Positions 2,216 through 64,000 of a DNA stretch of 64,000 nucleotides are shown one piece after another. Numbering within the stretch: the stretch's first letter is position 1; each line of letters starts with the position of its first letter. The stretch is from a virus, in the IMG/VR virus record IMGVR_UViG_3300045988_089718, positions 1 to 64,000 of that record; one strand, 5' to 3'. The notes under the pieces are model-generated. The model was not told the DNA's origin, ran no database searches, and worked only from the letters and a program-made list of their open reading frames with translations. A program made the translations under genes and the position numbers.

Positions 2216-2568
2216 CGATGAATCATAACACCTTGGGAGAATTAGTAATAATGCTCTCAGCACAGATTGATGCTGAGTACAATGTTTCTAAGACTACACA
2301 TTCTAACTATGCTAATGCTTTTAATAAGAAATATCAATATCTTAATAATACATTAAGAATTATTTCTGGAGAAAGTGTAAAAGGAGGAACATTTGCATTA
2401 TATACTAGAAATCCTTTACTAGTGTTATCAGGACTAATTATGGATAAGTACAAGAAAATATTATTTACAGATATAAAAGGTAATACTTTTGTTGTAAATA
2501 ATGTTAAATGGCTTTACCAATATATGAGTTCTAAAAACATTAATACAGAACCAAGAATATATGGATAA
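2209..2568 (+). CDS. hypothetical protein (119 aa)
   Basis: ORF in array. Confidence 0.5.
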   Translation: MVTMNHNTLGELVIMLSAQIDAEYNVSKTTHSNYANAFNKKYQYLNNTLRIISGESVKGGTFALYTRNPLLVLSGLIMDKYKKILFTDIKGNTFVVNNVKWLYQYMSSKNINTEPRIYG

Positions 2569-2970: not shown

Positions 2971-3366
2971 ATGGAATTATTATTTAATGTTAAACAGAAA
3001 AATGTTGTGGCTAAGATTAAGGAAGACTACTTCTTTCTTAGCAAGAAACCAAAGAAACTAGAGTTTGCTGATGAAAAGCATAAAACTCTAGTCTTAAAAC
3101 ATTTTAAGACTCTGAAACCAACTATTGAGGAGCATTCAGTTATTGATGAATCATTAACTGTAGATGAGTGGAAAGATTTTCCAGTATGGTTAGAAAATGA
3201 ATCTAATGGTGCTGAAGGGAATCTTGAGATTACTAAATTTGCTTATGGTAATATTAAACTGTATGTAAATGGGGGATGTCTTTGTGGCAATGTTCCAGAA
3301 TATGCTTTAAAAGGCATCATCGAGTTATTCAAACAATCTAAAACGAAAGAAAATGCAGACAATTAA
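2971..3366 (+). CDS. hypothetical protein (131 aa)
   Basis: ORF in array. Confidence 0.5.
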   Translation: MELLFNVKQKNVVAKIKEDYFFLSKKPKKLEFADEKHKTLVLKHFKTLKPTIEEHSVIDESLTVDEWKDFPVWLENESNGAEGNLEITKFAYGNIKLYVNGGCLCGNVPEYALKGIIELFKQSKTKENADN

Positions 3367-3868
3367 GAAAGTAAAGTACAACATTGAGAGAGTTGGTAAC
3401 AGTACATTTTGTACTATGTCTTGTGATCTGGAATATATAATGGGTCACTTAGAAGGAGCTAATGTAAAGGTTTCAGAAGCTGACACTTCTGTACTTTTTA
3501 AAATTGCGAATTCTAAAGAGAGAAAGATTTTTATTAAGAATCTTATTCCTTGGGGACTTACTGTTGATAATTCTACTATTACAATCGTTGCTAAAATTAC
3601 TTTAAGTAAAAATGACAAGGACGACCAGGCAGTAGCTAATCAAATTGTAAGAGACAAAGCTATGCACACTATGTGTAAAGTTATTGCAAATGCTCTGCAT
3701 CAAGCTTTAGAATCTACTTATAATAGAGTAGCTAAAGTAAACAATATTATTGATAAGTTGGATCATATTGCTTACTATTCAAAATATAGTGAGAGTGACA
3801 CAACTTGTGATCTTGGGGATTGTTCAGATCCAGGAGATGATGATGTAGATGTTACAGACGTACTATAA
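3353..3868 (+). CDS. hypothetical protein with acidic C-terminus (171 aa)
   Basis: ORF; C-terminal DPGDDDVDVTDVL. Confidence 0.5.
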   Translation: MQTIKKVKYNIERVGNSTFCTMSCDLEYIMGHLEGANVKVSEADTSVLFKIANSKERKIFIKNLIPWGLTVDNSTITIVAKITLSKNDKDDQAVANQIVRDKAMHTMCKVIANALHQALESTYNRVAKVNNIIDKLDHIAYYSKYSESDTTCDLGDCSDPGDDDVDVTDVL

Positions 3869-4300: not shown

Positions 4301-4373
4301 GGTCCTGTAGCTCAGTGTATAGAGCAGGAATCTTCTAAATTCCGGGTCGTGAGTTAGATTCTCGCCAGGACCA
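4301..4373 (+). tRNA. tRNA-Arg (anticodon TCT)
   Basis: Cloverleaf folded by hand: acceptor GGTCCTG/CAGGACC, D arm TAGCTCAGTGTATAGAGC, anticodon stem GGAAT/ATTCC with loop CTTCTAA, T loop GTTAGATTC. Confidence 0.85.
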
Positions 4374-4378
4374 CATAT

Positions 4379-4459
4379 ACGGAGTTCGCTTAATGGTTAG
4401 GGCACCTCACTTCCACAATTCATAGAGAGGGTATATTGGTTCGAATCCTTTACTCCGTA
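4379..4459 (+). tRNA. tRNA-like gene, non-canonical (about 18-nt loop in the anticodon region)
   Basis: Acceptor ACGGAGT/ACTCCGT pairs perfectly; D arm GCTT-AATGGTTA-GGGC; T loop TTCGAAT. The only stem in the anticodon region is CCTC/GAGG enclosing 18 nt. Architecture shared with 4890-4970. Confidence 0.5.
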
Positions 4460-4483
4460 CTAATATTAAAAAGATTGAGTAAT

Positions 4484-4834
4484 ATGAAAAAGATTATCTT
4501 ATTGATGAGTTTTATTGTATTAACTACAATAGCTCATGCGTTTAATTACGGTTCTATCACTATTTATCAAGATGGTGAATGGGGCAAGCCATTATATATT
4601 AAAACTTCAGTAGTATATAATAAGGCTAGAAAAACTATTACTTTTAGTAATAGTAAGTTTGGTAAAATGGTATTAAAAATATACTCTTCTGAAATGAAGG
4701 ATGGAGTAGAAATCCATAACTGTGGAGAGGTTAATACAGGGAGACGCTTTGTTGTCTTTATTACAGTGAGGAATAAAATTCCTTATGTGACTCTTAGTAC
4801 TTCCGCAGATACCATGTTTTCATTTGGCTTTTAA
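4484..4834 (+). CDS. secreted hypothetical protein (116 aa)
   Basis: Internal ATG giving signal-peptide-like MKKIILLMSFIVLTTIAHA. The 4436 start in the ORF track lies inside the preceding tRNA-like gene, so the later start is preferred. Confidence 0.5.
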   Translation: MKKIILLMSFIVLTTIAHAFNYGSITIYQDGEWGKPLYIKTSVVYNKARKTITFSNSKFGKMVLKIYSSEMKDGVEIHNCGEVNTGRRFVVFITVRNKIPYVTLSTSADTMFSFGF

Positions 4835-4889
4835 GTTTCCATAATAATGTGTTAACGTTTTACTAGTTTTCCGATATAAACTAGTACTT

Positions 4890-4970
4890 ACGGTAGTAGC
4901 TCAGTGGTTAGAACATCTCTTTATATAGGTCATTTCGAGATGGTCATTGGTTCGAATCCTTTCTACCGTA
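4890..4970 (+). tRNA. tRNA-like gene, non-canonical (about 17-nt loop in the anticodon region), paralog of 4379-4459
   Basis: Acceptor ACGGTAG/CTACCGT pairs perfectly; D arm GCTC-AGTGGTTA-GAAC; stem ATCTC/GAGAT encloses 17 nt; T arm ATTGG-TTCGAAT-CCTTT. Confidence 0.5.
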
Positions 4971-5214
4971 CAAATTCAATTTGATAGAGATGGAGGTGAG
5001 ATCTTCAATTATTAGATAGCTTGGCTAACTATCAATAGTTTCGTTTAAAATGCTCATTTATGTAGAATTTCTACAATCACCAGCCATGATTTGAGAAGAC
5101 CCTATCATTTTAATAGAATTTGATATATTGTTAATGTGTATAATAATCCTGACTAATAAATCTATTAGTATGGGTAGGTGTTACCACTATTCTCCTTACA
5201 GAAATGTGGGCTAT

Positions 5215-5287
5215 GGAGATATAGCTTAGAAGGTCAGAGCGCGGGACTGAAAATCCCGAGATTGTGGTTCGATTCCACGTGTCTCCA
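5215..5287 (+). tRNA. tRNA-Phe (anticodon GAA)
   Basis: Acceptor GGAGATA/TGTCTCC; anticodon stem CGGGA/TCCCG with loop CTGAAAA; T loop TTCGATT. Confidence 0.85.
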
Positions 5288-5291
5288 CTAT

Positions 5292-5381
5292 GTACGGATG
5301 CCTGAGTGGTCGAAAGGGTAGGTCTCCAAAACCTACAGAGACGAAAGTTGAACAACGTAGGTCCGAATCCTACTCCGTATG
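5292..5381 (+). tRNA. Type II (long variable arm) tRNA with apparent anticodon CCA
   Basis: Acceptor GTACGGA/TCCGTAT; 3-bp D stem; anticodon stem TAGGT/ACCTA with loop CTCCAAA; about 22-nt variable arm; T arm GTAGG-TCCGAAT-CCTAC (C at position 55). Confidence 0.6.
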
Positions 5382-5404
5382 CAAATAAATCAAATAAATA
5401 AAAT

Positions 5405-6019
5405 ATGGTAAATTGGGATAATGAAATTGAAAAGCTAAAAGACTATGTATTTACATAGAAACTTTCTTATGAAGAAATTGGTAGAATTTATAATTGTACT
5501 GGTGGCAACATAAAGAAAGTAATGCAGAGAAGAGGTATAGAATTACCTATTCGATCTAAAAATGCAGGAAAAGAACCTATTAATAAAGGTACTGGCAAAA
5601 AATGTTATTGTTTAAACTGTGGTAAAGATATTACAGATGCCAGAAATACTACCCATAAATATTGTTCTAATAAATGTCAACGTGAATATGAGTATAAACA
5701 ATGGGTTCAACAATATAAAGAAGATAACTCTATAGCTAAATCTACTAAATGGGGTTAGATACCTGGTCATTTAAGACATTATATATTTGATAAATTTGAT
5801 AACAAGTGTTGTATATGTGGTTGGTCAAAAATAAATCCCTACACAAATACAATTCCTTTAGAAATTGATCATATAGATGGAAATTCAGAAAATAACTCAG
5901 AAGATAACTTAAGATTAATATGTCCTAACTGTCATTCTCTAACCTCTACTTATAGAGGAGCTAATAGAGGTCAAGGAAGAAATATTACTTGGATTATTAA
6001 AGATAAATCTGCCCTCTAA
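5405..6019 (+). CDS. HNH homing-endonuclease-like protein; reading frame contains two in-frame TAG codons (5456-5458 and 5756-5758); either TAG-recoded or a pseudogene
   Basis: Single frame from ATG 5405: MVNWDNEIEKLKDYVFT-TAG-KLSYEEIGRIYNCTGGNIKKVMQRRGIELP...KSTKWG-TAG-IPGHLRHYIFDKFDNKCCICGWSKINP...EIDHIDGNSENNSEDNLRLICPNCH. The classic HNH motif (CxxC...HID..N...N...CxxCH) lies entirely downstream of the second TAG. Confidence 0.6.
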
Positions 6020-6133
6020 GCTTTAAGGTGAAGCACGAAACTTTTAATTTCGGGAAGACAGGTCAGTACTGTCAGGGGGTACTCCACATCTATTTTCGTT
6101 TTAGTCAAAATTTAAAATTAGACAAAAATCAAA

Positions 6134-6162
6134 GATTCTTGGTCTGCGATAGATAGAGAATC
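6134..6162 (+). repeat. Hairpin family member A3: stem GATTC/GAATC around loop TTGGTCTGCGATAGATAGA
   Basis: Conserved loop, covarying stem; lies just 5' of tRNA-Glu. Confidence 0.65.
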
Positions 6163-6167
6163 TACTT

Positions 6168-6240
6168 GGCACTATCGTCTACCTGGTTAGGACGCCACTC
6201 TTTCAAGGTGGAAAAACGATTTCGAGCATCGTTAGTGCTA
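6168..6240 (+). tRNA. tRNA-Glu (anticodon TTC)
   Basis: Acceptor GGCACTA/TAGTGCT; anticodon stem CCACT/GGTGG with loop CTTTCAA. Confidence 0.8.
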
Positions 6241-6316
6241 CCCTTTAAATAAAACTAATACGATTAATGTTTAAGATATAAAGTCAGCGGACTTTATAAC
6301 GTTAAAGAGTTGTTAG

Positions 6317-6342
6317 GCTTCTTGTCTGTGAAGATAGGAAGC
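6317..6342 (+). repeat. Hairpin family member A4: stem GCTTC/GAAGC around loop TTGTCTGTGAAGATAGG
   Basis: Conserved loop, covarying stem; just 5' of tRNA-Ser. Confidence 0.65.
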
Positions 6343-6348
6343 TTTATT

Positions 6349-6436
6349 GGAGAAATGACTGAGCGGTCGAAAGTGGCACCCTGCTAAGGTGTTAGTCATG
6401 TTATGTGGCTCGAAGGTTCGAATCCTTCTTTCTCCG
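6349..6436 (+). tRNA. tRNA-Ser (anticodon GCT), type II
   Basis: Acceptor GGAGAAA/TTTCTCC; anticodon stem GCACC/GGTGT with loop CTGCTAA; long variable arm; T arm AAGG-TTCGAAT-CCTT. Confidence 0.85.
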
Positions 6437-6442
6437 CTATAT

Positions 6443-6513
6443 TGGGTTATGGTGTAATGGTAGCACTACAGATTTTGGTTCTGTCAGCTCCAGTTCGAAT
6501 CTGGGTAGCCCAA
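6443..6513 (+). tRNA. tRNA-Gln (anticodon TTG)
   Basis: Acceptor TGGGTTA/TAGCCCA; D arm GTGT-AATGGTA-GCAC; anticodon stem ACAGA/TCTGT with loop TTTTGGT; T arm TCCAG-TTCGAAT-CTGGG. Confidence 0.75.
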
Positions 6514-6520
6514 CAACTTA

Positions 6521-6598
6521 CAGGTGACTTACGGTGTGGGAACCGTTATCTATTAAAGATATATAGCCCATGGGCATTAGCCTAAGGAGTTCGAATCT
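6521..6598 (+). tRNA. tRNA-like fragment (T arm GGAG-TTCGAAT-CTCT and D-arm-like ACGG-TGTGGGAA-CCGT; no pairing acceptor found)
   Basis: tRNA-like local elements but no consistent cloverleaf by hand; needs tRNAscan/Infernal. Confidence 0.25.
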
Positions 6599-6796
6599 CT
6601 AAGCCTGACAATTTTAATAGGTACTAAACAACTCTCAGTAACTCTATTAAATAGCGTAATTACCTTAAAATTAATCATTTGAGTTAAAAAGAGAAAGAAC
6701 GTTAGATAGCTGAGGACAATGGAATAGTTTAAATATAACCAGTGAAAATCGCCTATTATTTAAATAGATTATTAACACATTAATTATAGATAAATT

Positions 6797-7186
6797 ATGA
6801 CAAGACAAGATTATTTTGTTAGAAAAACCAATTTAATAGCACAAATAGAAAGTGCTAAGAAGTTTGGTTGTAAAAATGTACTTAAGTGTGCTAAATTAGA
6901 TTTAGCCAAGCTTGAAGAAAAGTACAAAAAAGAACATCTTTCTAATCCTCTGTTCAGTTACATGGTAACTGATGAAGAAATGGATGAGCTTATTAGAAAT
7001 GATGAAAAGCCTACATTTAAAATTAAAGTAACTTTCAAAAGTGGTGAAGCTTATGATTTAATGTTTTACCATGAACTTAAAAGTGGAGTTAAACATTCTG
7101 ATGTTGTGAAATGGGCGATGAAAGGGTTAATTAAAACTATCTATCATCCTGAAAATATTGTAGATGCTCGTTTTATTATGGGTTAA
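6797..7186 (+). CDS. hypothetical protein (129 aa)
   Basis: ORF embedded in the tRNA cluster. Confidence 0.5.
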   Translation: MTRQDYFVRKTNLIAQIESAKKFGCKNVLKCAKLDLAKLEEKYKKEHLSNPLFSYMVTDEEMDELIRNDEKPTFKIKVTFKSGEAYDLMFYHELKSGVKHSDVVKWAMKGLIKTIYHPENIVDARFIMG

Positions 7187-7191
7187 GAGAT

Positions 7192-7551
7192 ATGGAAATA
7201 AAAACAATACAAATTGATTCTGATACATTTTTAGTGTTTAAGGGACGAGAGTACAGACAGATAAACATAGAAGACATTGTATGTTTAAAAACATCTGGTA
7301 AATATAGTACTATAATAGATGTTCATGGCTATAAAATTGATGTGTGTTGTTCATTAAAAGAAATTACACATGTTTTATGTATTGATTTTATTCTTGCAAC
7401 ACAAGGATTTTTGATAAATCATAAATACATATCTGAGATAATTAGAAAGAATGATGAAAATAATACATATATCTTAAAATTAAATGATGATATTCATACA
7501 ACTGTGGATATTTCACTACATATAGCTACAAACATGTTAAAACAATTGTAA
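7192..7551 (+). CDS. hypothetical protein (119 aa)
   Basis: ORF embedded in the tRNA cluster. Confidence 0.5.
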   Translation: MEIKTIQIDSDTFLVFKGREYRQINIEDIVCLKTSGKYSTIIDVHGYKIDVCCSLKEITHVLCIDFILATQGFLINHKYISEIIRKNDENNTYILKLNDDIHTTVDISLHIATNMLKQL

Positions 7552-7590
7552 TACCATAATAGTTTAAGGTTTATAAAATAAATATTGTTG

Positions 7591-7613
7591 GCAACTAGCA
7601 GATAATTAGTTGC
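7591..7613 (+). repeat. Palindrome GCAACTA-GCAGATAAT-TAGTTGC upstream of tRNA-Leu; copy 2 of the 4274 element
   Basis: Near-identical roughly 30-nt block with the same position relative to a tRNA start. Confidence 0.6.
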
Positions 7614-7618
7614 TATCT

Positions 7619-7704
7619 GGCTCAGTGGTGGAATTGGTAGACACGAGGGACTTAAAATCCCTTGACCAGGAATGGTCGTGCAAGTTCGATTCTTGTCTGA
7701 GCTA
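7619..7704 (+). tRNA. tRNA-Leu (anticodon TAA), type II
   Basis: D loop TGGTGGAATTGGTAGACAC typical of tRNA-Leu; anticodon stem AGGGA/TCCCT with loop CTTAAAA; acceptor GGCTCAG/CTGAGCT (G1-U72). Confidence 0.85.
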
Positions 7705-7719
7705 CAATAATAAACTAAC

Positions 7720-24025: not shown

Positions 24026-24355
24026 GGGGATGTTTTGGTTTTGAACTTCGAGGAGATAAGGAACACAGCAAGACAGTTGGAGAGACAACAAAACAATAAT
24101 CGCTAGAGTTATTAATATGACTCCTGCTTATCAGGCTGCTGCCTGAGAAGCCGAGCAGCACTTGCTTAGGAACAGAAAGGTGCACTATTTTCCATTTCTT
24201 TTGTAAGTTCTCTGTATACTTTAGGAACAGAGTGGTGGAAGTTGGCAATGTTAATCTTGTCAACCCTAATAGACAAGGATAGTCTCTAAAACCTATGCTG
24301 TAAGAATGTTTTGATGCAAATCGGAGTGACAGGGGTTCGACTCCCCTCATCTCCA
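24026..24355 (+). ncRNA. ssrA: tmRNA-like gene (about 330 nt)
   Basis: 5' GGGGATG pairs with 3' CATCTCC, giving a tRNA-Ala-like acceptor with G3:U70. 3' T arm GGGG-TTCGACT-CCCC. Locally GC-rich with no ORF (the minus ORF 24003-24356 is spurious). Candidate tag frame GCT AGA GTT ... TAT CAG GCT GCT GCC TGA (ARVINMTPAYQAAA). Confidence 0.6.
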
Positions 24356-24445
24356 CTAGTTCATAGAACTGTTTTTATTATTTGTTTTTAATCCCTGGGC
24401 TATTATTATAGTTCAGGGATTTTTGTTTAATTTTAACTGTTAATT

Positions 24446-31492: not shown

Positions 31493-31503
31493 TCAGGACT
31501 TTC

Positions 31504-31576
31504 GCCTCGGTAGTTCAGTGGTTAGAACGCGAAACTGTTAATTTCGATGTCGGGAGTTCGAATCTCTCCTAGACAA
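31504..31576 (+). tRNA. tRNA-Asn-like (anticodon GTT) with non-complementary acceptor stem
   Basis: D arm, anticodon arm (CGAAA-CTGTTAA-TTTCG) and T arm align closely to bacterial tRNA-Asn, but the 5' acceptor GCCTCGG does not pair with the 3' CTAGACA. Confidence 0.5.
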
Positions 31577-31598
31577 CTAATTAATAAAAATAAATAAT

Positions 31599-32075
31599 AT
31601 GAAAGAGACTTTTAATTATCAATCAGATGCAAACTTTTATGATAAAAAGGATTTTATTATAGCAGTCTTAAAAAGAAAAATAAATAGTTTTAAAGAGTAT
31701 GATGCTGAAAGAAAAAAGCATTATGCTGGACTAGAACAAAAAATTGGAGAATTAGAATCTTATATAGATGAATTAGAGAATGGACTTGGTATAGAATCTT
31801 TAAATAATAAAATTCAATCTTTAGAAAATAAAATTGAAAAACAAAAACTTAAAATTAAAGAATTGCAAGCTAAAGTTAATATATCTTTGTTTGATGATAC
31901 TAAGTCTTTTGAAGAATTAGAATCTATAGCAAATAATTTAAAGAACTTTAATAGTATAAGATTAGCTAATAAAGGTCTTAGAAAACAGCTTAAGGATAAT
32001 AAAAATACTATATCTGATTTAATCTATAAATTAACACAAGCTAAACTTAAAATAAAACAATTAACTGGAGAGTAA
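31599..32075 (+). CDS. hypothetical coiled-coil protein (158 aa)
   Basis: ORF. Confidence 0.5.
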   Translation: MKETFNYQSDANFYDKKDFIIAVLKRKINSFKEYDAERKKHYAGLEQKIGELESYIDELENGLGIESLNNKIQSLENKIEKQKLKIKELQAKVNISLFDDTKSFEELESIANNLKNFNSIRLANKGLRKQLKDNKNTISDLIYKLTQAKLKIKQLTGE

Positions 32076-32085
32076 TCTCCAATTT

Positions 32086-32160
32086 GGGCTCGTAGTTCAG
32101 TTGGCTAGAACGCTACTTCTGCAAGGTAGATGTCGTGGGTTCGAGTCCCACCGTGGTCCA
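32086..32160 (+). tRNA. tRNA-Ala-like (anticodon TGC) with imperfect acceptor stem
   Basis: D arm TAGTTCAGTTGGCTAGAAC; anticodon stem CTACT/GGTAG with loop TCTGCAA (C at position 33); T arm GTGGG-TTCGAGT-CCCAC. Acceptor GGGCTCG with 3' GTGGTCC gives G1-C, G2-C, G3-U and then mismatches. Confidence 0.5.
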
Positions 32161-32178
32161 CTATTAAATTAAATATTT

Positions 32179-32517
32179 ATGAAAATAATTATTGATACAG
32201 ACAATTTAGAAACATTAAAGTATAAAACTGAAGATGTTCCTATTTTAATAAAGACTTTCCAACAATTAATAAATAAATTAATGTATGAAGTAATAGGAAA
32301 TTATTATTCTGTAGACGATGTTCCTGAGGATGCTCCAAAATGGGTAAAAGAAGAACTACTTAATGTAGGAAAAACCTGTTACGTGGATGGATATATGAAT
32401 AAAGAATATGTTTTTAAAGGTATTCAAGAAACATTTGAGGATTATTATTATATATTAGAAAATAATAATAAACAAATTTCTTATTCTTCATGCGTTGGAA
32501 AGATATCTTATAAATAA
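32179..32517 (+). CDS. hypothetical protein (112 aa)
   Basis: ORF. Confidence 0.5.
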   Translation: MKIIIDTDNLETLKYKTEDVPILIKTFQQLINKLMYEVIGNYYSVDDVPEDAPKWVKEELLNVGKTCYVDGYMNKEYVFKGIQETFEDYYYILENNNKQISYSSCVGKISYK

Positions 32518-32519
32518 AT

Positions 32520-32597
32520 GCGAGATTAGTGTAGCTGAAGGCGCATATCTGGCTTCCAACCAGAAGGCTTGCGTGGGTTTGATTCCCACATCTCGCA
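32520..32597 (+). tRNA. tRNA-Gly (anticodon TCC)
   Basis: Acceptor GCGAGAT/ATCTCGC; anticodon stem TCTGG/CCAGA with loop CTTCCAA; T arm GTGGG-TTTGATT-CCCAC. Confidence 0.85.
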
Positions 32598-33028
32598 CTA
32601 TAACAAAGCTCTAGAATACTAGTCACAGGAGCAACGTAACTTATAGGGTGCCTCTCAACGATGCATACTCGCCTATTAGGTGTCGTAGAACCTACGAACT
32701 GGAATGGTTCGACGTTTTTTGCATTCCTACAGAATCCTAAATAATAAAAACAGAGACCATAAGATTGTCTCTGACAGGGGCGATTTACCTGGGATTCTTA
32801 ATTTTTTAAATTCTCCTCCTAGATACTTTATAAGTTAAACTTTAAATTTGATTTATTATGATGAAAATTTTAAAAAGAACTTTAAAAGCCATTAAGAAGG
32901 GTTGGACTTGGTATGCTAATCAGTATTGTAGATTATACATGCCTCCAATGATTTAATCTTATTATTTAATTTGTAAGTACCAAAGGGGTACTTACTGATG
33001 TTGAGTCGGGCAATAAGCTCGACTTTTT

Positions 33029-57224: not shown

Positions 57225-59453
57225 ATGTTATTTATGGTAATAAAAAGAGACGGAATTAAAGAAGAGTTTAACAGAAACAAAATTAGAGATGCTGTACTAA
57301 AAGCTTTTGGAGTTACCCAAAATTCTAGTAAAACAATAGATGAAGATATTTACAGAGCAGTTACTGAGATAACTAATTCTGTAGTAGAGACTGAAGATCA
57401 ATCTATTGAGGATATTCAAGACCAAATTGAAGAACTTTTAATGGATTTAGGATATCACGACGTAGCTAAAAAATATATTCTATATCGTAAAGAACGTGAG
57501 GATATTAGAAATCATGCTACTAGGGATATTAAATTTATTCATAATTTTGTAAAATCTGATAATACTGCTAATGCTACTATTGACGACAATAGTAATGTTG
57601 GAACTAAAGGTATTGGAGTATTAAACGCTGAAATACATAAAGTCGATAATAAACTCACTAATACAGAATGGTGGGAAAGTTTTGTAAAGAAGAGAGATCC
57701 TAACTTTAATATAAAAGTTATGAGAAATGATTTTAAAACTATTTTATATCCTCATGACTCATCTTCTCAAGTAGGAGAACCATATTGTATGGCAGCTTCT
57801 ATGTATCCTTTCTTGTTGTCTGGATTAGAGAAATTAGGAGGCAAATCAGCTGTTCCAAAGAATCTTGATTCATTCTGTGGTATTTATGTAAATTTAAACT
57901 TTGCATTAGCTTCTGAAATTAAAGGAGCAGTAGCTACTCCTGAGTTCCTAATGTATATGGATTATTTCTGTAGAAAAGAATGGGGAAATAATTATTATCT
58001 CAAACCAAGTGTAAAAATAACTACAGACTATTGTATAAAACAAAAAACTATTGGTAGTCAAATTGATCAGTATTTCCAACAGGTAACTTATTCTATTAAT
58101 CAAATAGCAGGAGCTAGAGGAATGCAGTCTCCATTTACAAATTTTTCATTCTTCGATAAATATTTCTTTGAAGGTATGTTTGGAGAATTTGTATTTCCAG
58201 ATGGAACAAAGCCAGAATGGAACTCTACTAATTGGCTACAAAAACGTTATTTACATTGGCTAAATCAAGAAAGATTAAAATGTATTTTAACATTCCCTGT
58301 ATGTAGCTATGCTTGTTTAACTGATAAGGAAGGTAATTTTAAAGATTTAGACACTTTCCATTATATATGCAATGAATATGCTCAAGGAAATTCTTTCTTT
58401 ACTTACATGTCTCGTAGCGTAGATAGTTTAAGCTCATGTTGTCGCTTACAGAATGCAGTACAAGAAAATACGTTTAATACTACTAATGGTCAGATAGGAA
58501 TAATGACTGGTAGTAAGAATGTTATTACCCTTGATTTAAATAGAATTATTCAGGATTGGCAGCATACTTGGTCTGATTATAAAGACCATATTGATGTTGA
58601 TACTAATAGATGTTGCTTCCCAGTAGATTGGATTACACATAAAGACTTCCAAGAAGGAATTAAGAAATATATAGAAAATATTCTTGAAAGAGTTTATTTA
58701 TATCAGTATGCTTACAATGACTTAATGCATTGGTGTAAAGACCATCATTTATATGCTGCTTATGATGCTGGTTTTATTAATCTTGATAAACAGTACTTAA
58801 CTATTGGAATTAATGGTTTAAATCAGGCTGCTGAATACTTAGGAATGGAATGTAATAATAATATTTATTATAAGACATTCTGTAGATTGATATTCAGTAC
58901 TATAAAAGAACAGAATAAGAAACATAAAACTAAAACAGCTCAATTTAATACTGAACAAGTGCCAGCAGAATCTGCTTCAGTAAAACTCTATAATAGAGAT
59001 AAAGCTGATGGCTATTGGGTTCCTACAGATACTAATCTGTATGCTAGTTATATATTTAAACCTAATGATACACATATAAGTATACTTGATAAAATTATAC
59101 TTCATAGTTCTGAGTTCGCTGCTGATGAATTAGATGGAGGTTCTGCTTGCCATCTTAATTTATCTGAACATTTGAGTCAGAAACAATATGAGTATTTACT
59201 TAAATTTATGGCTAAAGTAGGTTGTAAATATGTTACTTTTAATATTCCTAATTGTGAATGTGAAGAGTGTCATTTTATAGCAAAACAACCATTCAGTAAA
59301 TGTCCTAAATGCGGCAGTACTCATGTAAGTCTATGGGATAGAATTATCGGTTATCTTACAAAAATTTCTAACTGGAGTGCTGCTAGACGATTAGAAGGTA
59401 GTACTAGAAGTAGAAAAAATGGATTAGAAATTAATATAGAATTAGCACAATGA
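57225..59453 (+). CDS. nrdD: Anaerobic (class III) ribonucleoside-triphosphate reductase
   Basis: N-terminal ATP-cone-like VIKRDGIKEEFNRNKI; C-terminal Zn ribbon CECEECHF...CPKCGS, then glycyl-radical motif RIIGYL; 742 aa. Confidence 0.85.
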   Translation: MLFMVIKRDGIKEEFNRNKIRDAVLKAFGVTQNSSKTIDEDIYRAVTEITNSVVETEDQSIEDIQDQIEELLMDLGYHDVAKKYILYRKEREDIRNHATRDIKFIHNFVKSDNTANATIDDNSNVGTKGIGVLNAEIHKVDNKLTNTEWWESFVKKRDPNFNIKVMRNDFKTILYPHDSSSQVGEPYCMAASMYPFLLSGLEKLGGKSAVPKNLDSFCGIYVNLNFALASEIKGAVATPEFLMYMDYFCRKEWGNNYYLKPSVKITTDYCIKQKTIGSQIDQYFQQVTYSINQIAGARGMQSPFTNFSFFDKYFFEGMFGEFVFPDGTKPEWNSTNWLQKRYLHWLNQERLKCILTFPVCSYACLTDKEGNFKDLDTFHYICNEYAQGNSFFTYMSRSVDSLSSCCRLQNAVQENTFNTTNGQIGIMTGSKNVITLDLNRIIQDWQHTWSDYKDHIDVDTNRCCFPVDWITHKDFQEGIKKYIENILERVYLYQYAYNDLMHWCKDHHLYAAYDAGFINLDKQYLTIGINGLNQAAEYLGMECNNNIYYKTFCRLIFSTIKEQNKKHKTKTAQFNTEQVPAESASVKLYNRDKADGYWVPTDTNLYASYIFKPNDTHISILDKIILHSSEFAADELDGGSACHLNLSEHLSQKQYEYLLKFMAKVGCKYVTFNIPNCECEECHFIAKQPFSKCPKCGSTHVSLWDRIIGYLTKISNWSAARRLEGSTRSRKNGLEINIELAQ

Positions 59454-59713
59454 AAAAAATATTAAAATTTGAAGCAGAATGGTGTGGACAATGTAAAGCT
59501 TTAGCACCTATTTTAAAAAGAGTATTAGAAAATCATACTGATATTACCTTAATTACAGTAGATATAGAGACAGAGGAAGAAACTACTCTTAAATATAATA
59601 TTAGGAATCTCCCAACTCTTGTATTTATAAAAGATAATATAGAGGTAGGAAGAACTTCTGGAGTTCTAACTGCTGATATGCTTGAGAACAAAATTAAAGA
59701 GTTCTATGCTTAA
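59450..59713 (+). CDS. Thioredoxin/glutaredoxin-like redoxin (87 aa)
   Basis: Active-site WCGQCK (CxxC) with the characteristic thioredoxin-fold order; start overlaps the nrdD stop. Confidence 0.7.
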   Translation: MKKILKFEAEWCGQCKALAPILKRVLENHTDITLITVDIETEEETTLKYNIRNLPTLVFIKDNIEVGRTSGVLTADMLENKIKEFYA

Positions 59714-60182
59714 ATATGTTGATACTGCTGTTACTTTTGCAGAATTTCCTAATGAAGTTTCTCTGTGTATTAACATCAGTAATTGCCCTTGTTGCTGTGA
59801 TGGTTGCCATTCGCCTTATTTGTCAAAAGATATTGGAGAAGTGCTATCATTGGAACGACTCCAAGGATTAATTGAATCTAATAAGGGGATTACATTAGTA
59901 GGATTTATGGGAGGAGATTCTGATCCAGAAGAAATAAATAAATTAGCTAAATGGGTTAGAGAAAATTATCCCGAATTACATATTGGATGGTATAGTGGCA
60001 AACAATTACTAGCTGATAATGACATAGATATTGATAATTTTGATTATATTAAACTTGGTCCTTATATGAAACAATTTGGACCATTAAATAATCCGAATAC
60101 TAATCAAAAATTTTATAAGATAGATAGAAATGCCCATATAATGATATGGTGTACTGATATATTTTGGAAGGAGGCTGAATAA
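59706..60182 (+). CDS. nrdG: Anaerobic RNR activating enzyme (radical SAM)
   Basis: CPCCCDGCHSP provides the CX3CX2C cluster; size and position after nrdD; internal ATG chosen (the ORF track's 59682 start overlaps the redoxin). Confidence 0.7.
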   Translation: MLKYVDTAVTFAEFPNEVSLCINISNCPCCCDGCHSPYLSKDIGEVLSLERLQGLIESNKGITLVGFMGGDSDPEEINKLAKWVRENYPELHIGWYSGKQLLADNDIDIDNFDYIKLGPYMKQFGPLNNPNTNQKFYKIDRNAHIMIWCTDIFWKEAE

Positions 60183-62475: not shown

Positions 62476-62767
62476 TACAATTGAATTACAATGGACATTG
62501 AATGAAAGTGATACTTTTACAAAGTACGAAATATTCGAGGCATTAGCAGATTTATTCGATACTTATGAAATAGTGCCAGAAAATGTAGATTATTCAAGTT
62601 ATGTAATTAATTGGCTAAATACTAATTTAAAAGATTTTGTAGAAGATTTTCTTACTATATTATATCCAATGATGGACATTAATGAAAAGGTAGATTATTG
62701 TAATATCACTAATTTATTAGATAATGAAGAATTTATAAAAGAATTTAAACTATATTTAGGTGACTAA
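62468..62767 (+). CDS. hypothetical acidic protein (99 aa)
   Basis: ORF. Confidence 0.45.
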   Translation: MDDTIELQWTLNESDTFTKYEIFEALADLFDTYEIVPENVDYSSYVINWLNTNLKDFVEDFLTILYPMMDINEKVDYCNITNLLDNEEFIKEFKLYLGD

Positions 62768-62999
62768 AATACTAGTAATTCCGGATGTACATGGTCGTGG
62801 TTTTTGGAAAGAACCATGCAATAATTGGACAGGTAAAATTATATTCTTAGGAGATTATCATGACCCTTATGGAGAATATGTAGTTGGAGAACCTGATAAA
62901 ACAGAATCTTTAATCAATCTTAAAGAATTAGTTACTTTTGTAGAGAATAGACGTAAAATTTCTGATGTTATATGCCTATTAGGCAATCATAAATTTTAA
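62760..62999 (+). CDS. Ser/Thr-phosphatase-like metallophosphoesterase, 5' exon only (interrupted directly after the GNH motif)
   Basis: VIPDVHG (DxH), IIFLGDYHD (GDxxD), LLGNH, then KF-stop where GNHE and the C-terminal half are expected; followed by intron-like sequence. Confidence 0.55.
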   Translation: MTKILVIPDVHGRGFWKEPCNNWTGKIIFLGDYHDPYGEYVVGEPDKTESLINLKELVTFVENRRKISDVICLLGNHKF

Positions 63000-64000
63000 C
63001 ATAGGTTTCCTTGGAAATCTTTTCTAAAATATGTATACTTAAGTGTTAATAATTAATACTTAAGCTATGCATCAATTTAATCACAATTATTTTAAAACTA
63101 TTGATACAGAAGAAAAAGCTTATATCCTTGGTTTTCTGTATGCTGATGGCTATAACTCTGATAAGCAAGTAGTTATAGCCCAATTAGAACAAGATGTTGA
63201 TATTTTAGAAAAGATAAATAAAGCACTAGATGCAGATAATCAAATAAAAAGAAAATTACAGAGTACAAATAATAAAACTGTATGTCAATTATACTATAGT
63301 AGTATAGATATGTGTGCAGACTTAACTAATCTTGGATGTTTTAGAAATAAATCTTTAGCATGTACTTTTCCAACATTTCTAGATAAATCTCTAATTCGAC
63401 ATTTCATTAGAGGTTATTTTGATGGTGATGGATGTGTTTGGATAGGTAAAAGAAAAATAATGACTGTTAAAGATAAGACGAGACCAAGTGGATTTCGGGA
63501 GCGCATAGTTCAAAATGTTAAATTTACAATAACTGGTAATATGACATTTATTAATAGTTTACAAGATGAGTTAGTACAAATGTTGGGATTTAAGAAAACT
63601 AAACTTAATTTTAGCAAGGCTAAAAATGCTAATAATAGCACTTGTGATAAAGTTTGTACTATGGAGTATTCTGGCAGAAAACAGATGCAATCTTTTTATA
63701 ATTATATGTATGAAGGAGCTTCTATTTGGGGAAATAGAAAAAAATTAAAATTTGAAGAAATTTGTGCGTTTGAAGAGAAATCTTCAAAGGACACCTAGTT
63801 AATTGCTGGAACGCCTGAGATGGTAATCAGCAGCCAAGCCTCTAATATTGAGGAAGGTTCATCGACTATCCCTGAAATGGGAGTAGAATCAAGTGATTCG
63901 AAATGCTAGGCTCTTAACGACACGCAAGTGGGCGAAGATGAAGATATAGTCAGTTCTGTAGTTAAATGAAGCTACAGCGATAAAATTGGGACTAGAGTAA
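63000..64000 (+). mobile_element. Probable group I intron carrying a LAGLIDADG homing endonuclease, inserted in the metallophosphoesterase gene (3' boundary beyond the window)
   Basis: Gene interrupted at a catalytic motif; the intervening ORF is a homing endonuclease; 63799-64000 is non-coding, locally GC-rich and hairpin-rich. Confidence 0.55.
63067..63798 (+). CDS. LAGLIDADG homing endonuclease (two-motif, 243 aa)
   Basis: Motif 1 ILGFLYADGY and motif 2 IRGYFDGDGCVW. Confidence 0.8.
   Translation: MHQFNHNYFKTIDTEEKAYILGFLYADGYNSDKQVVIAQLEQDVDILEKINKALDADNQIKRKLQSTNNKTVCQLYYSSIDMCADLTNLGCFRNKSLACTFPTFLDKSLIRHFIRGYFDGDGCVWIGKRKIMTVKDKTRPSGFRERIVQNVKFTITGNMTFINSLQDELVQMLGFKKTKLNFSKAKNANNSTCDKVCTMEYSGRKQMQSFYNYMYEGASIWGNRKKLKFEEICAFEEKSSKDT

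Follow-up and report, generated by a model that had tools for sequence, protein, structure and literature searches.

The interrupted metallophosphatase gene

Near the 3' end of a 64,000-nucleotide (nt) stretch of viral DNA, positions 1 to 64,000 of the IMG/VR record IMGVR_UViG_3300045988_089718 (hereafter the window), the reading frame of a metallophosphatase gene breaks off in its catalytic GNH motif, which raises the question of what interrupts it and whether its two parts still belong to one gene. An original prediction, made from the letters of the window, had proposed a group I intron carrying a LAGLIDADG homing endonuclease gene. We find, with a probability of roughly 93%, that the gene is interrupted by a mobile group I intron belonging to the IA type, with helices P7.1 and P7.2, lying between the His and Asp codons of GNH^D in a phage metallophosphatase gene (a caret marks the insertion point throughout). 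This reading is carried by the anatomy of the locus, a reconstituted open reading frame (ORF), an RNA structure established by covariation, a predicted protein fold and a sporadic distribution. The interrupted gene is laid out as follows.

62760..62990, + strand: exon 1 of the metallophosphatase gene, 77 codons, GTG start, ending ...GGC AAT CAT (G-N-H); from the ORF list and the sequence
62991..64000 in the window, continuing to 64021, + strand: group I intron, 1031 nt in total, with U at position -1 and a terminal G
62990 to 64022: predicted ligated-exon junction, ...GGCAATCAT joined to GATTTAAGC

The ORF at 62760..62999 encodes 79 amino acids (aa) from its GTG start (MTKILVIPDVHGRGFWKEPCNNWTGKIIFLGDYHDPYGEY...VICLLGNHKF, then a stop) and, as had been noticed at the outset, carries DVHG and GDYHD and ends two codons past LLGNH; all minus-strand ORFs of the region are shorter than 46 aa. 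The 5' junction was set by alignment with an intron-less homologue at 2978..3685 of locus L001, which comes from MT835492, a 121-kb gut phage record in which the phosphatase gene is uninterrupted and encodes 235 aa (...LLGNHDLVYFNGNGKCRFDYW), the protein around the junction reading ...ICLLGNHDLVYFNGNGKCRFDYW... This alignment places the break between the His and Asp codons, in agreement with the proposal of a split exactly in the GNH motif. When megablast was run against phages, the sole match was the intron-less exon 1 of MT835492.

An exact-protein look-up with the endonuclease encoded in the insertion retrieved Logan contig SRR341634_497 (L002, 48.8 kb), which is 100% identical to the window across all 6934 shared nt and beyond its end reads ...GAGTAA, CGAACTAGTTTAAACAAAAAG, GATTTAAGCTATTTCAATGGAAATGGTAAATGTAGATTTGATTATTGG... 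Exon 2 begins there at L002 6956 (64022 in window numbering), outside the window as had been supposed, with GAT TTA AGC TAT TTC AAT (DLSYFN) directly past ...AAAAAG, and continues DLSYFNGNGK... Joining window 62760..62990 to L002 6956..7444 yields an in-frame protein of 239 aa, without stops in exon 2, that is 87% identical to the MT835492 protein over its full length and straight through the junction. The rejoined protein passes the Pfam Metallophos model (PF00149) with 23.6 bits against a cut-off of 21.5, which the exon-1 fragment alone fails (17.1), and its motifs follow in the order D9-V-H11, G31-D-Y-H-D35, G75-N-H-D78, SH128AG and FGH200S. A PDB sequence search with it returned nothing useful, and an NCBIfam search gave weak matches only. 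The extended sequence therefore holds the remainder of the phosphatase in frame, from DLSYFN onward, and the ORFs flanking the endonuclease are halves of one protein rather than unrelated genes, as the original prediction had implied.

A group I ribozyme of the IA type

Since the exons join in frame relative to the intron-less homologue, the intron comprises 1031 nt, from 62991 to 64021. Its end lies 21 nt past the window, from which only the P9.1 3' strand, the tail ending in the terminal G, and exon 2 are missing; in L002 the intron ends ...AAAAAG^GAT, and the terminal G is present in 12 of 12 relatives. A search with the Rfam group I model (RF00028, Intron_gpI) matched 63744..63971 at model positions 1-253 with 71.6 bits (gathering threshold 50, E 7e-18), and scanning the 64-kb window with Rfam detected no further group I intron. 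Together with the covariation described below, this score bears out the proposed class of the intron. The original prediction had also taken 63799-64000 to be a GC-rich intron core: the rise in GC is real (0.37-0.43 in 63700..64000 against 0.23-0.32 upstream), but the ribozyme starts earlier, with its internal guide sequence (63757..63766), inside the 3' end of the endonuclease ORF. The helices downstream of P1 were assigned as follows.

63770..63787, + strand: P2 hairpin, UUGAAG AGAAAU CUUCAA; 6 of 7 pairs with compensatory changes
63794..63799 with 63905..63910, + strand: P3; 4 of 6 pairs compensatory, from RNAalifold and pair counts
63804..63857, + strand: P4-P5-P6, enclosed by P3
63864..63868, + strand: P7 5' strand, enclosed by P3
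63869..63882, + strand: P7.1, enclosed by P3
63886..63899, + strand: P7.2, enclosed by P3; 5 of 5 pairs compensatory
63912..63938, + strand: P8, present in the minimum-energy fold of the mini-intron and followed by J8/7
63947..63951, + strand: P7 3' strand, UAGUC
63956..63977, + strand: P9 hairpin; 5 of 7 pairs compensatory
63989..63995, + strand: P9.1 5' strand; 6 of 7 pairs compensatory
64005..64021, + strand, outside the window: P9.1 3' strand, tail and terminal G, from L002

The presence of P7.1 and P7.2 between P7 and the 3' strand of P3 assigns the intron to the IA subgroups (IA2-like). To measure covariation, 12 distinct related introns were aligned (alignment A2), of which 3 are naturally without an ORF and 9 were shortened within the P1 loop by an artificial join, the segment from exon -9 to intron +9 being fused to that from guide sequence -11 through 3' splice site +6. 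Of the 58 pairs that RNAalifold predicts on this alignment, 32 carry compensatory changes. A hand-drawn structure containing P1, P2-P6, P7 (a pseudoknot), P7.1, P7.2, P9 and P9.1 is paired in 98.8% of cells, with compensatory changes in 34 of 63 pairs; none of 500 shuffled controls reached its value, and sliding the 3' partners by 1-3 columns lowered pairing to 28-40%. Individually, P2, P3, P4, P5, P6, P7.1, P7.2, P9 and P9.1 are each 96-100% paired, and compensatory changes occur in all of them, the outer two pairs of P6 excepted. The outer stem of P8 covaries by eye among relatives (UCUU with AAGA, CCCU with AGGG, UCCU with AGGA, CCUU with AAGG), and when the P1-loop interior is taken out of the window intron, the minimum-energy fold of the resulting mini-intron is P1-P9.1.

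P1 and the endonuclease gene in its loop

The remaining elements of the fold concern the 5' splice site and its partner, which lie far apart.

62988..62997, + strand: P1 5' strand, CAU^AAAUUUU, with the 5' splice site after U62990
63757..63766, + strand: internal guide sequence and P1 3' strand, GAAAUUUGUG, in which G63764 pairs with U62990
63031..63072, + strand: 19-bp hairpin in the P1-loop leader, with the endonuclease AUG (63067..63069) in its 3' strand

P1 is a 10-bp helix between CAU^AAAUUUU and GAAAUUUGUG with a U.G wobble at the splice site, and its guide sequence is found 767 nt downstream of that site, immediately before P2; Rfam aligns G63764 to the guide-sequence G of its model. 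All 12 relatives share the wobble, and 3 of 8 P1 pairs show compensatory changes, with co-changes at intron positions +2, +4 and +5: the +4 pair is U-A in the window and A-U in three relatives (L006, L008 and L009), and the +2 pair, generally A-U, is G-C in L015. Other placements were considered and set aside. Local candidates for a guide sequence close to the intron 5' end pair U-1 with A or reach only 3 bp. The hexamer GUGAUU at intron position 903, with a 6-nt exon match, falls in the 3' strand of P7.2, has the wrong topology and is expected by chance about 0.5 times per 1 kb. The 5' strand that Rfam itself assigns to P1, an AAAUUU inside the ORF, is an artefact, because the model cannot span a 770-nt loop; its 3' strand and guide G are nevertheless correct.

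Three relatives lack the endonuclease ORF altogether, L025 (265 nt) and L014 and L023 (302-304 nt), and in these the same P1 is a plain hairpin (L025: GGTAATCAT^AAAATATAATTTGTGCT...; L014: AATCAT^TGATTGTATTTAAATACAATTTGTGCT...), from which it follows that the endonuclease gene occupies the P1 loop (~770 nt). The last 14 endonuclease codons run from the guide sequence through P2 into the 5' strand of P3: the codons for I-C-A are the guide sequence, those for F-E-E-K-S-S-K are P2, and the stop codon TAG (63796..63798) lies within P3. In the relatives L003, L006, L008 and L009 the endonuclease frame stays open for 80-206 nt further into the ribozyme, which accounts for the many database homologues of 285-300 aa. 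The invariant C-terminal residues K-F-E-x-I-C-A..E-K-S are probably fixed by constraints on the RNA, not by protein function.

This arrangement bears on a different account of the locus, namely that a free-standing homing endonuclease sits between unrelated or independently functional genes and that no RNA splicing takes place, as in the nrdA gene of phage Aeh1, split by mobE. Such endonucleases have precedents for splitting phage genes (PMC3045599), and the homologous arrangement in crAss-like phages is annotated as three separate coding sequences (CDS). However, a complete group I ribozyme brackets the endonuclease here, with the P1 5' strand upstream and the elements from the guide sequence to P9.1 downstream, the flanking ORFs are halves of a single protein split within a motif, and ORF-less versions of the insert occupy the same site. 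We therefore regard a free-standing endonuclease as very improbable and retain the group I intron.

The leader hairpin is predicted to have a free energy of -16.6 kcal/mol (z -5.65), and none of 200 shuffled sequences was as stable; hairpins of differing sequence enclose the AUG in L003, L004, L020, L006, L008 and L009. The P1-loop leaders of L006, L008 and L009, and weakly window 63013..63040, contain the pattern ..GG(A/T)AA(C/T)C..AATCAT-ATTTGT(G/A).., which resembles a second exon end plus guide sequence. Those of L006 and L009 also read TATATTTG, similar to a -7 promoter box of Bacteroidota. The repeat in the leader could be a relic of the invasion by the endonuclease gene or an internal promoter.

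A further pairing predicted by RNAalifold joins UUUGUG of the guide sequence to CACAAA of the 3' tail before the terminal G (A2 columns 31-36 and 315-320; window 63761..63766 and 64015..64020). It is perfect in 7 of 12 relatives, and the window tail, CAAAAA, introduces a G.A mismatch. This could be an alternative or post-splicing pairing, or a mere echo of the splice-site sequence CAUAAA.

A two-motif LAGLIDADG endonuclease

63067..63798, + strand: LAGLIDADG homing endonuclease gene, 243 aa, in the P1 loop; from Pfam, PHROG, a PDB profile and AlphaFold

The protein contains the two motifs LGFLYADGY (residues 21-29) and IRGYFDGDGCV (114-124), and scores above the cut-offs of two Pfam families, LAGLIDADG_3 (PF14528; 29.3 bits against 22.5) and LAGLIDADG_1 (PF00961; 23.6 against 23.1). 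LAGLIDADG_3 matches 6 of 6 family members (best E 1e-9), and a PHROG search matches phrog_4645 'endonuclease' (5e-49). A PDB sequence search with the endonuclease alone returned nothing useful, while a family profile matched I-Tsp061I (2dch) over a region spanning motif 1 to motif 2. Both catalytic Asp residues are kept among 27 homologues, D27 without exception and D121 with a conservation of at least 90%. An AlphaFold model built with an alignment of these homologues (pLDDT 89.3, pTM 0.86) displays a tandem alpha-beta-beta-alpha-beta-beta-alpha arrangement. Foldseek comparison with the PDB ranked I-Tsp061I, I-AniI, I-AabMI and the I-OnuI group best, with E values of 2e-9 to 1e-7 over both domains; of the 39 matches at E <= 1e-3, 38 belong to LAGLIDADG endonucleases or to inteins bearing an endonuclease, and the last is DUF199/WhiA, which has the same fold. 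By profile and predicted fold, the protein is a monomeric two-motif LAGLIDADG enzyme, as its ORF had been read from the start. It has 3263 homologues, almost all unnamed.

LAGLIDADG domains are common in inteins, and the NCBIfam and PDB matches include intein-bearing proteins, so splicing at the level of the protein has to be weighed as well. The reading frames already refute it: the endonuclease ORF is out of frame with exon 1, which runs into a stop two codons past GNH and is followed by 67 nt of non-coding leader. With no Hint-domain blocks and a ribozyme present, an intein has practically no claim on this locus, and an intron removed from RNA is the reading that we pursue.

Sporadic distribution and alleles of the host gene

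An uninterrupted version of the same phosphatase gene occurs in 20 IMG/VR contigs as well as in MT835492, while the intron is found in the window and in one other contig (L005/L030). The copy in L005 (IMGVR_UViG_3300045988_096232) is nearly identical, with an endonuclease 99% identical to that of the window; right at its 5' splice site (~2404..2435) L005 carries a 10-nt tandem duplication, AAATTTTAAT^AAATTTTAAC. In intron-less alleles, the site on which the endonuclease would be expected to act is the following.

Putative intron-less target site: GGTAATCAC^GATTTA; in longer form TTAGGTAATCAC^GATTTAGTT

All 21 intron-less alleles read AATCAC^GAT, and every intron-bearing gene examined, in all host families, reads ...CAT^ with T at -1, in keeping with the U.G wobble, which requires a T there; the difference is synonymous. 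It fits either co-conversion at homing or selection for splicing, and the C allele could also resist endonuclease cleavage.

Among the related introns the endonuclease gene is found in several states: full genes, a decayed gene of which only a C-terminal remnant is left (L015), genes with the 5' part replaced (L012 and L021) and ORF-less introns, a range that is the usual life cycle of such elements. The same decay might be taken to extend to the window, where the intron would no longer splice and the phosphatase would be a pseudogene or two separately expressed fragments, and gene callers do list separate fragments of 79 aa and 124 aa. The state of the window copy speaks against this. Its core helices are all intact, and compensatory changes across the family show that selection on the structure is ongoing; the splice-site U, the guide G and the terminal G are all in place; exon 2 is in frame, free of stops and 87% identical to intact homologues; and the endonuclease ORF is of full length with D27 and D121 conserved. 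We consider a decayed intron unlikely, and an intact mobile intron remains the preferred account.

Related introns at the same motif in unrelated genes

A distant DNA search identified the same endonuclease and ribozyme in the crAss-like phages cr125_1 and cr114_1, and protein-guided and ribozyme-pattern scans of IMG/VR located 33 more loci. The proteins encoded across representative insertion sites read as follows.

Window: LLGNH^DLSYF
L006: RGNH^DNQELG
L008: LGNH^DTTRW
L009: LGNH^DELH
L013: KGNH^DFRQN
crAss-like "MRE11": PGNH^DFF
L014: GDSNH^DGDWGW
L015: CGNH^GGNFEY

In every copy examined, at least 15 distinct introns, the insertion directly follows (G/S)NH codons in a metallophosphatase-type ORF; where the 3' exon was recovered, it starts with Asp (Gly in L015). 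Among these are the endonuclease homologues sampled at 53-60% identity, which lie directly after ...GNH (3 of 3). The interrupted host proteins fall into at least four groups without significant pairwise BLASTP similarity, and the relationships of the introns cut across these groups: the ribozymes of L008 and L015 are 97% identical although their host genes are unrelated, which points to recent transfer, and the window ribozyme is 84% identical to that of L006 although the host proteins share just 27% identity. Near-identical ribozymes in such dissimilar hosts suggest that the lineage moves between non-homologous genes that share a GGN AAY CAY GAY core.

We cautiously favor, by a small margin over doubt, the view that the window holds one copy of a large and essentially unannotated lineage that is specialised on the superfamily motif GGN-AAY-CAY^GAY of many non-homologous gut-phage metallophosphatase genes and jumps between them. 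An endonuclease and ribozyme pair of this kind can persist by aiming at codons that no member of the enzyme superfamily can change, and such an invariant target would let the lineage move between unrelated genes and between phage families. If it is undescribed, it would provide a clean natural case in which a catalytic motif common to the host enzymes directs the ectopic spread of an intron. The more than 3000 endonuclease sequences, whose sampled members would all act on variants of one short core target as judged from their insertion sites, could serve studies of LAGLIDADG specificity and engineering. The chief interest of the locus is mainly this family-level pattern rather than the window copy.

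In the host gene of L014 (439+ aa), exon 2 stops after 53 codons (...ILFMHGDIFFIFLI, then a stop), ~150-200 nt past the 3' splice site (locus position 2971). The homologue in L015 runs for 145 codons past the junction, and in L014 another ORF follows the stop; the L014 host gene may hold a second insertion.

Proposed mechanism

The structure suggests how the element would operate. One pre-mRNA would be transcribed across exon 1, the intron and exon 2, and the guide sequence at 63757..63766 would pair with the last three exon and first seven intron bases, forming P1 with the U.G pair at the splice site. Free guanosine, taken up by P7, would attack after U62990; the terminal G would then take the place of that guanosine, and the exons would be joined to give ...LLGNH-DLSYF... 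and the 239-aa enzyme. The endonuclease, for its part, is expected to cut intron-less alleles around GGN AAY CAY^GAY, upon which repair from an intron-bearing copy would insert the intron (homing).

The endonuclease ORF extends through the guide sequence and P2 into P3, and its start codon lies in the 19-bp hairpin; ribosome passage and ribozyme folding therefore probably exclude each other, and endonuclease translation is probably kept low. In the case of I-TevI, a hairpin that covers the initiation region keeps translation in check (PMC3984707), and by analogy we infer a translational-control role for the leader hairpin of the window intron.

Several points weigh against the intron as we reconstruct it. 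Its 3' 21 nt and exon 2 come from the second assembly (Logan SRR341634) and not from the window; splicing and catalysis, endonuclease cleavage and its site, and homing are drawn from the sequence; and the functional matches of the host phosphatase are all weak (the phosphoesterase region of a PHROG 'RNA ligase' and ApaH-like proteins). In the RNA, P7 (100% paired) and the junction nucleotides are invariant and thus yield no information from covariation, P8 stands outside the formal pair count because its 3' strand is displaced by one column between sequences in the MAFFT alignment, and the potential for P10 amounts to just ~2 bp (G.U and A-U).

Comparison with known systems

In mechanism and anatomy, the window element is a standard mobile phage group I intron of the IA type, a textbook kind of selfish element; the lineage to which it belongs has been little described and recurs at one catalytic motif across many phage phosphatase genes that are unrelated to each other. 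The element leaves the established principles of group I introns as they are. What does change is annotation, as the phosphatase is to be recorded as one gene, not three.

The nearest described relatives are in the crAss-like phages cr125_1 (NC_055900) and cr114_1 (NC_055897) of the Suoliviridae, where the same intron lineage occupies a metallophosphatase gene labelled 'MRE11 nuclease'. As in the window, the insertion point is GNH^D, read GGT AAT CAT^GAT in these phages, and the P1 loop holds the endonuclease gene. DNA identity to the window is 68-70% across the ribozyme and the 3' half of the endonuclease gene, and the endonucleases are 49-53% identical. Unlike the window, these copies score below the Rfam gathering threshold, reside in a different phosphatase without significant similarity, and have an endonuclease ORF that extends 80 nt past the guide G, against 32 nt in the window. 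In both records (L003 1901..3808 in NC_055900 and L004 1074..2957 in NC_055897) a CDS annotated 'DNA double-strand break repair protein / MRE11 nuclease' appears on both sides of an 'endonuclease'. The records thus show a split CDS and an 'endonuclease; mobile intron protein', not labelled as an intron, for what is in fact one gene split at GNH^D, and these reference genes could be re-annotated likewise. A high density of introns with LAGLIDADG ORFs has been described in crAss-like phages, with the major capsid protein, PolB, primase and ATPase genes listed as hosts (PMC7886860).

The closest functional analogues are the IA2 introns of phage T4 in td, nrdB and nrdD (sunY), which encode I-TevI, I-TevII and I-TevIII. 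The open reading frames of these introns lie in the P6 or P9.1 loops, not in the P1 loop. Like the window intron, they interrupt conserved catalytic regions of enzyme and nucleotide-metabolism genes, are of the IA type with P7.1 and P7.2, carry an endonuclease in a peripheral loop, are sporadically distributed and home by double-strand-break repair. They differ in their host genes and in endonucleases of the GIY-YIG or HNH class; according to a review, the endonucleases of phage introns are usually of classes other than LAGLIDADG (PMC3984707).

At the level of protein structure, the model of the window enzyme resembles I-Tsp061I (2dch), I-AniI (1p8k and 3eh8) and the I-OnuI group with a Foldseek probability of 1.00 and TM scores of 0.5-0.64, but sequence identity is 12-14%, and those enzymes come from rRNA genes of archaea or mitochondrial genes of fungi. 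I-AniI doubles as a maturase of its own intron, a function that we do not claim for the window enzyme. A LAGLIDADG gene in the P1 loop, as in the window, is known from cox3-i2 of Hypomyces aurantius, a mitochondrial IA1 intron that differs in being organellar, part of a twintron, degenerate in its ORF and unrelated to phage or metallophosphatase genes (PMC4964425). Group I introns of the Bastillevirinae, the subject of a systematic survey, likewise encode endonucleases in loops, including one LAGLIDADG case, but the tabulated host gene is DNA polymerase, HNH enzymes dominate, and the main text has no phosphatase or phosphoesterase (PMC11878797). In a literature search of partial coverage, we found no described intron in a phage metallophosphatase or Mre11-like gene, nor targeting at the level of a motif.

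Surrounding genes

Taken as a whole, the window forms a block of replication and nucleotide-metabolism genes, among them helicases, exonucleases and a nicotinamide phosphoribosyltransferase. Just upstream of the phosphatase gene, at 57225..60182, lies an anaerobic ribonucleotide reductase module composed of an NrdD-like protein of 742 aa, a thioredoxin-like ORF and an NrdG-like activase. A tmRNA gene is found at 24026..24358 (+ strand; Rfam RF00023, 65.5 bits against a cut-off of 47), for which ARAGORN gives the tag peptide ARVINMTPAYQAAA, then a stop. ARAGORN also lists 13 tRNA genes in two clusters on the + strand, 4301..11674 and 31503..32598, comprising Arg, Phe, Trp, Glu, Ser, Gln, Leu (two), Met, Asn, Ala, Gly and one with an odd anticodon loop (4890..4971). 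The Rfam tRNA model has 14 matches in the window, one of them, at 4379..4459, beyond the ARAGORN set. Finally, 5.6 kb past the end of the window, a second Metallophos gene of the same phage (229 aa, PF00149) is found at L002 12552..12732, downstream of a DNA ligase gene.

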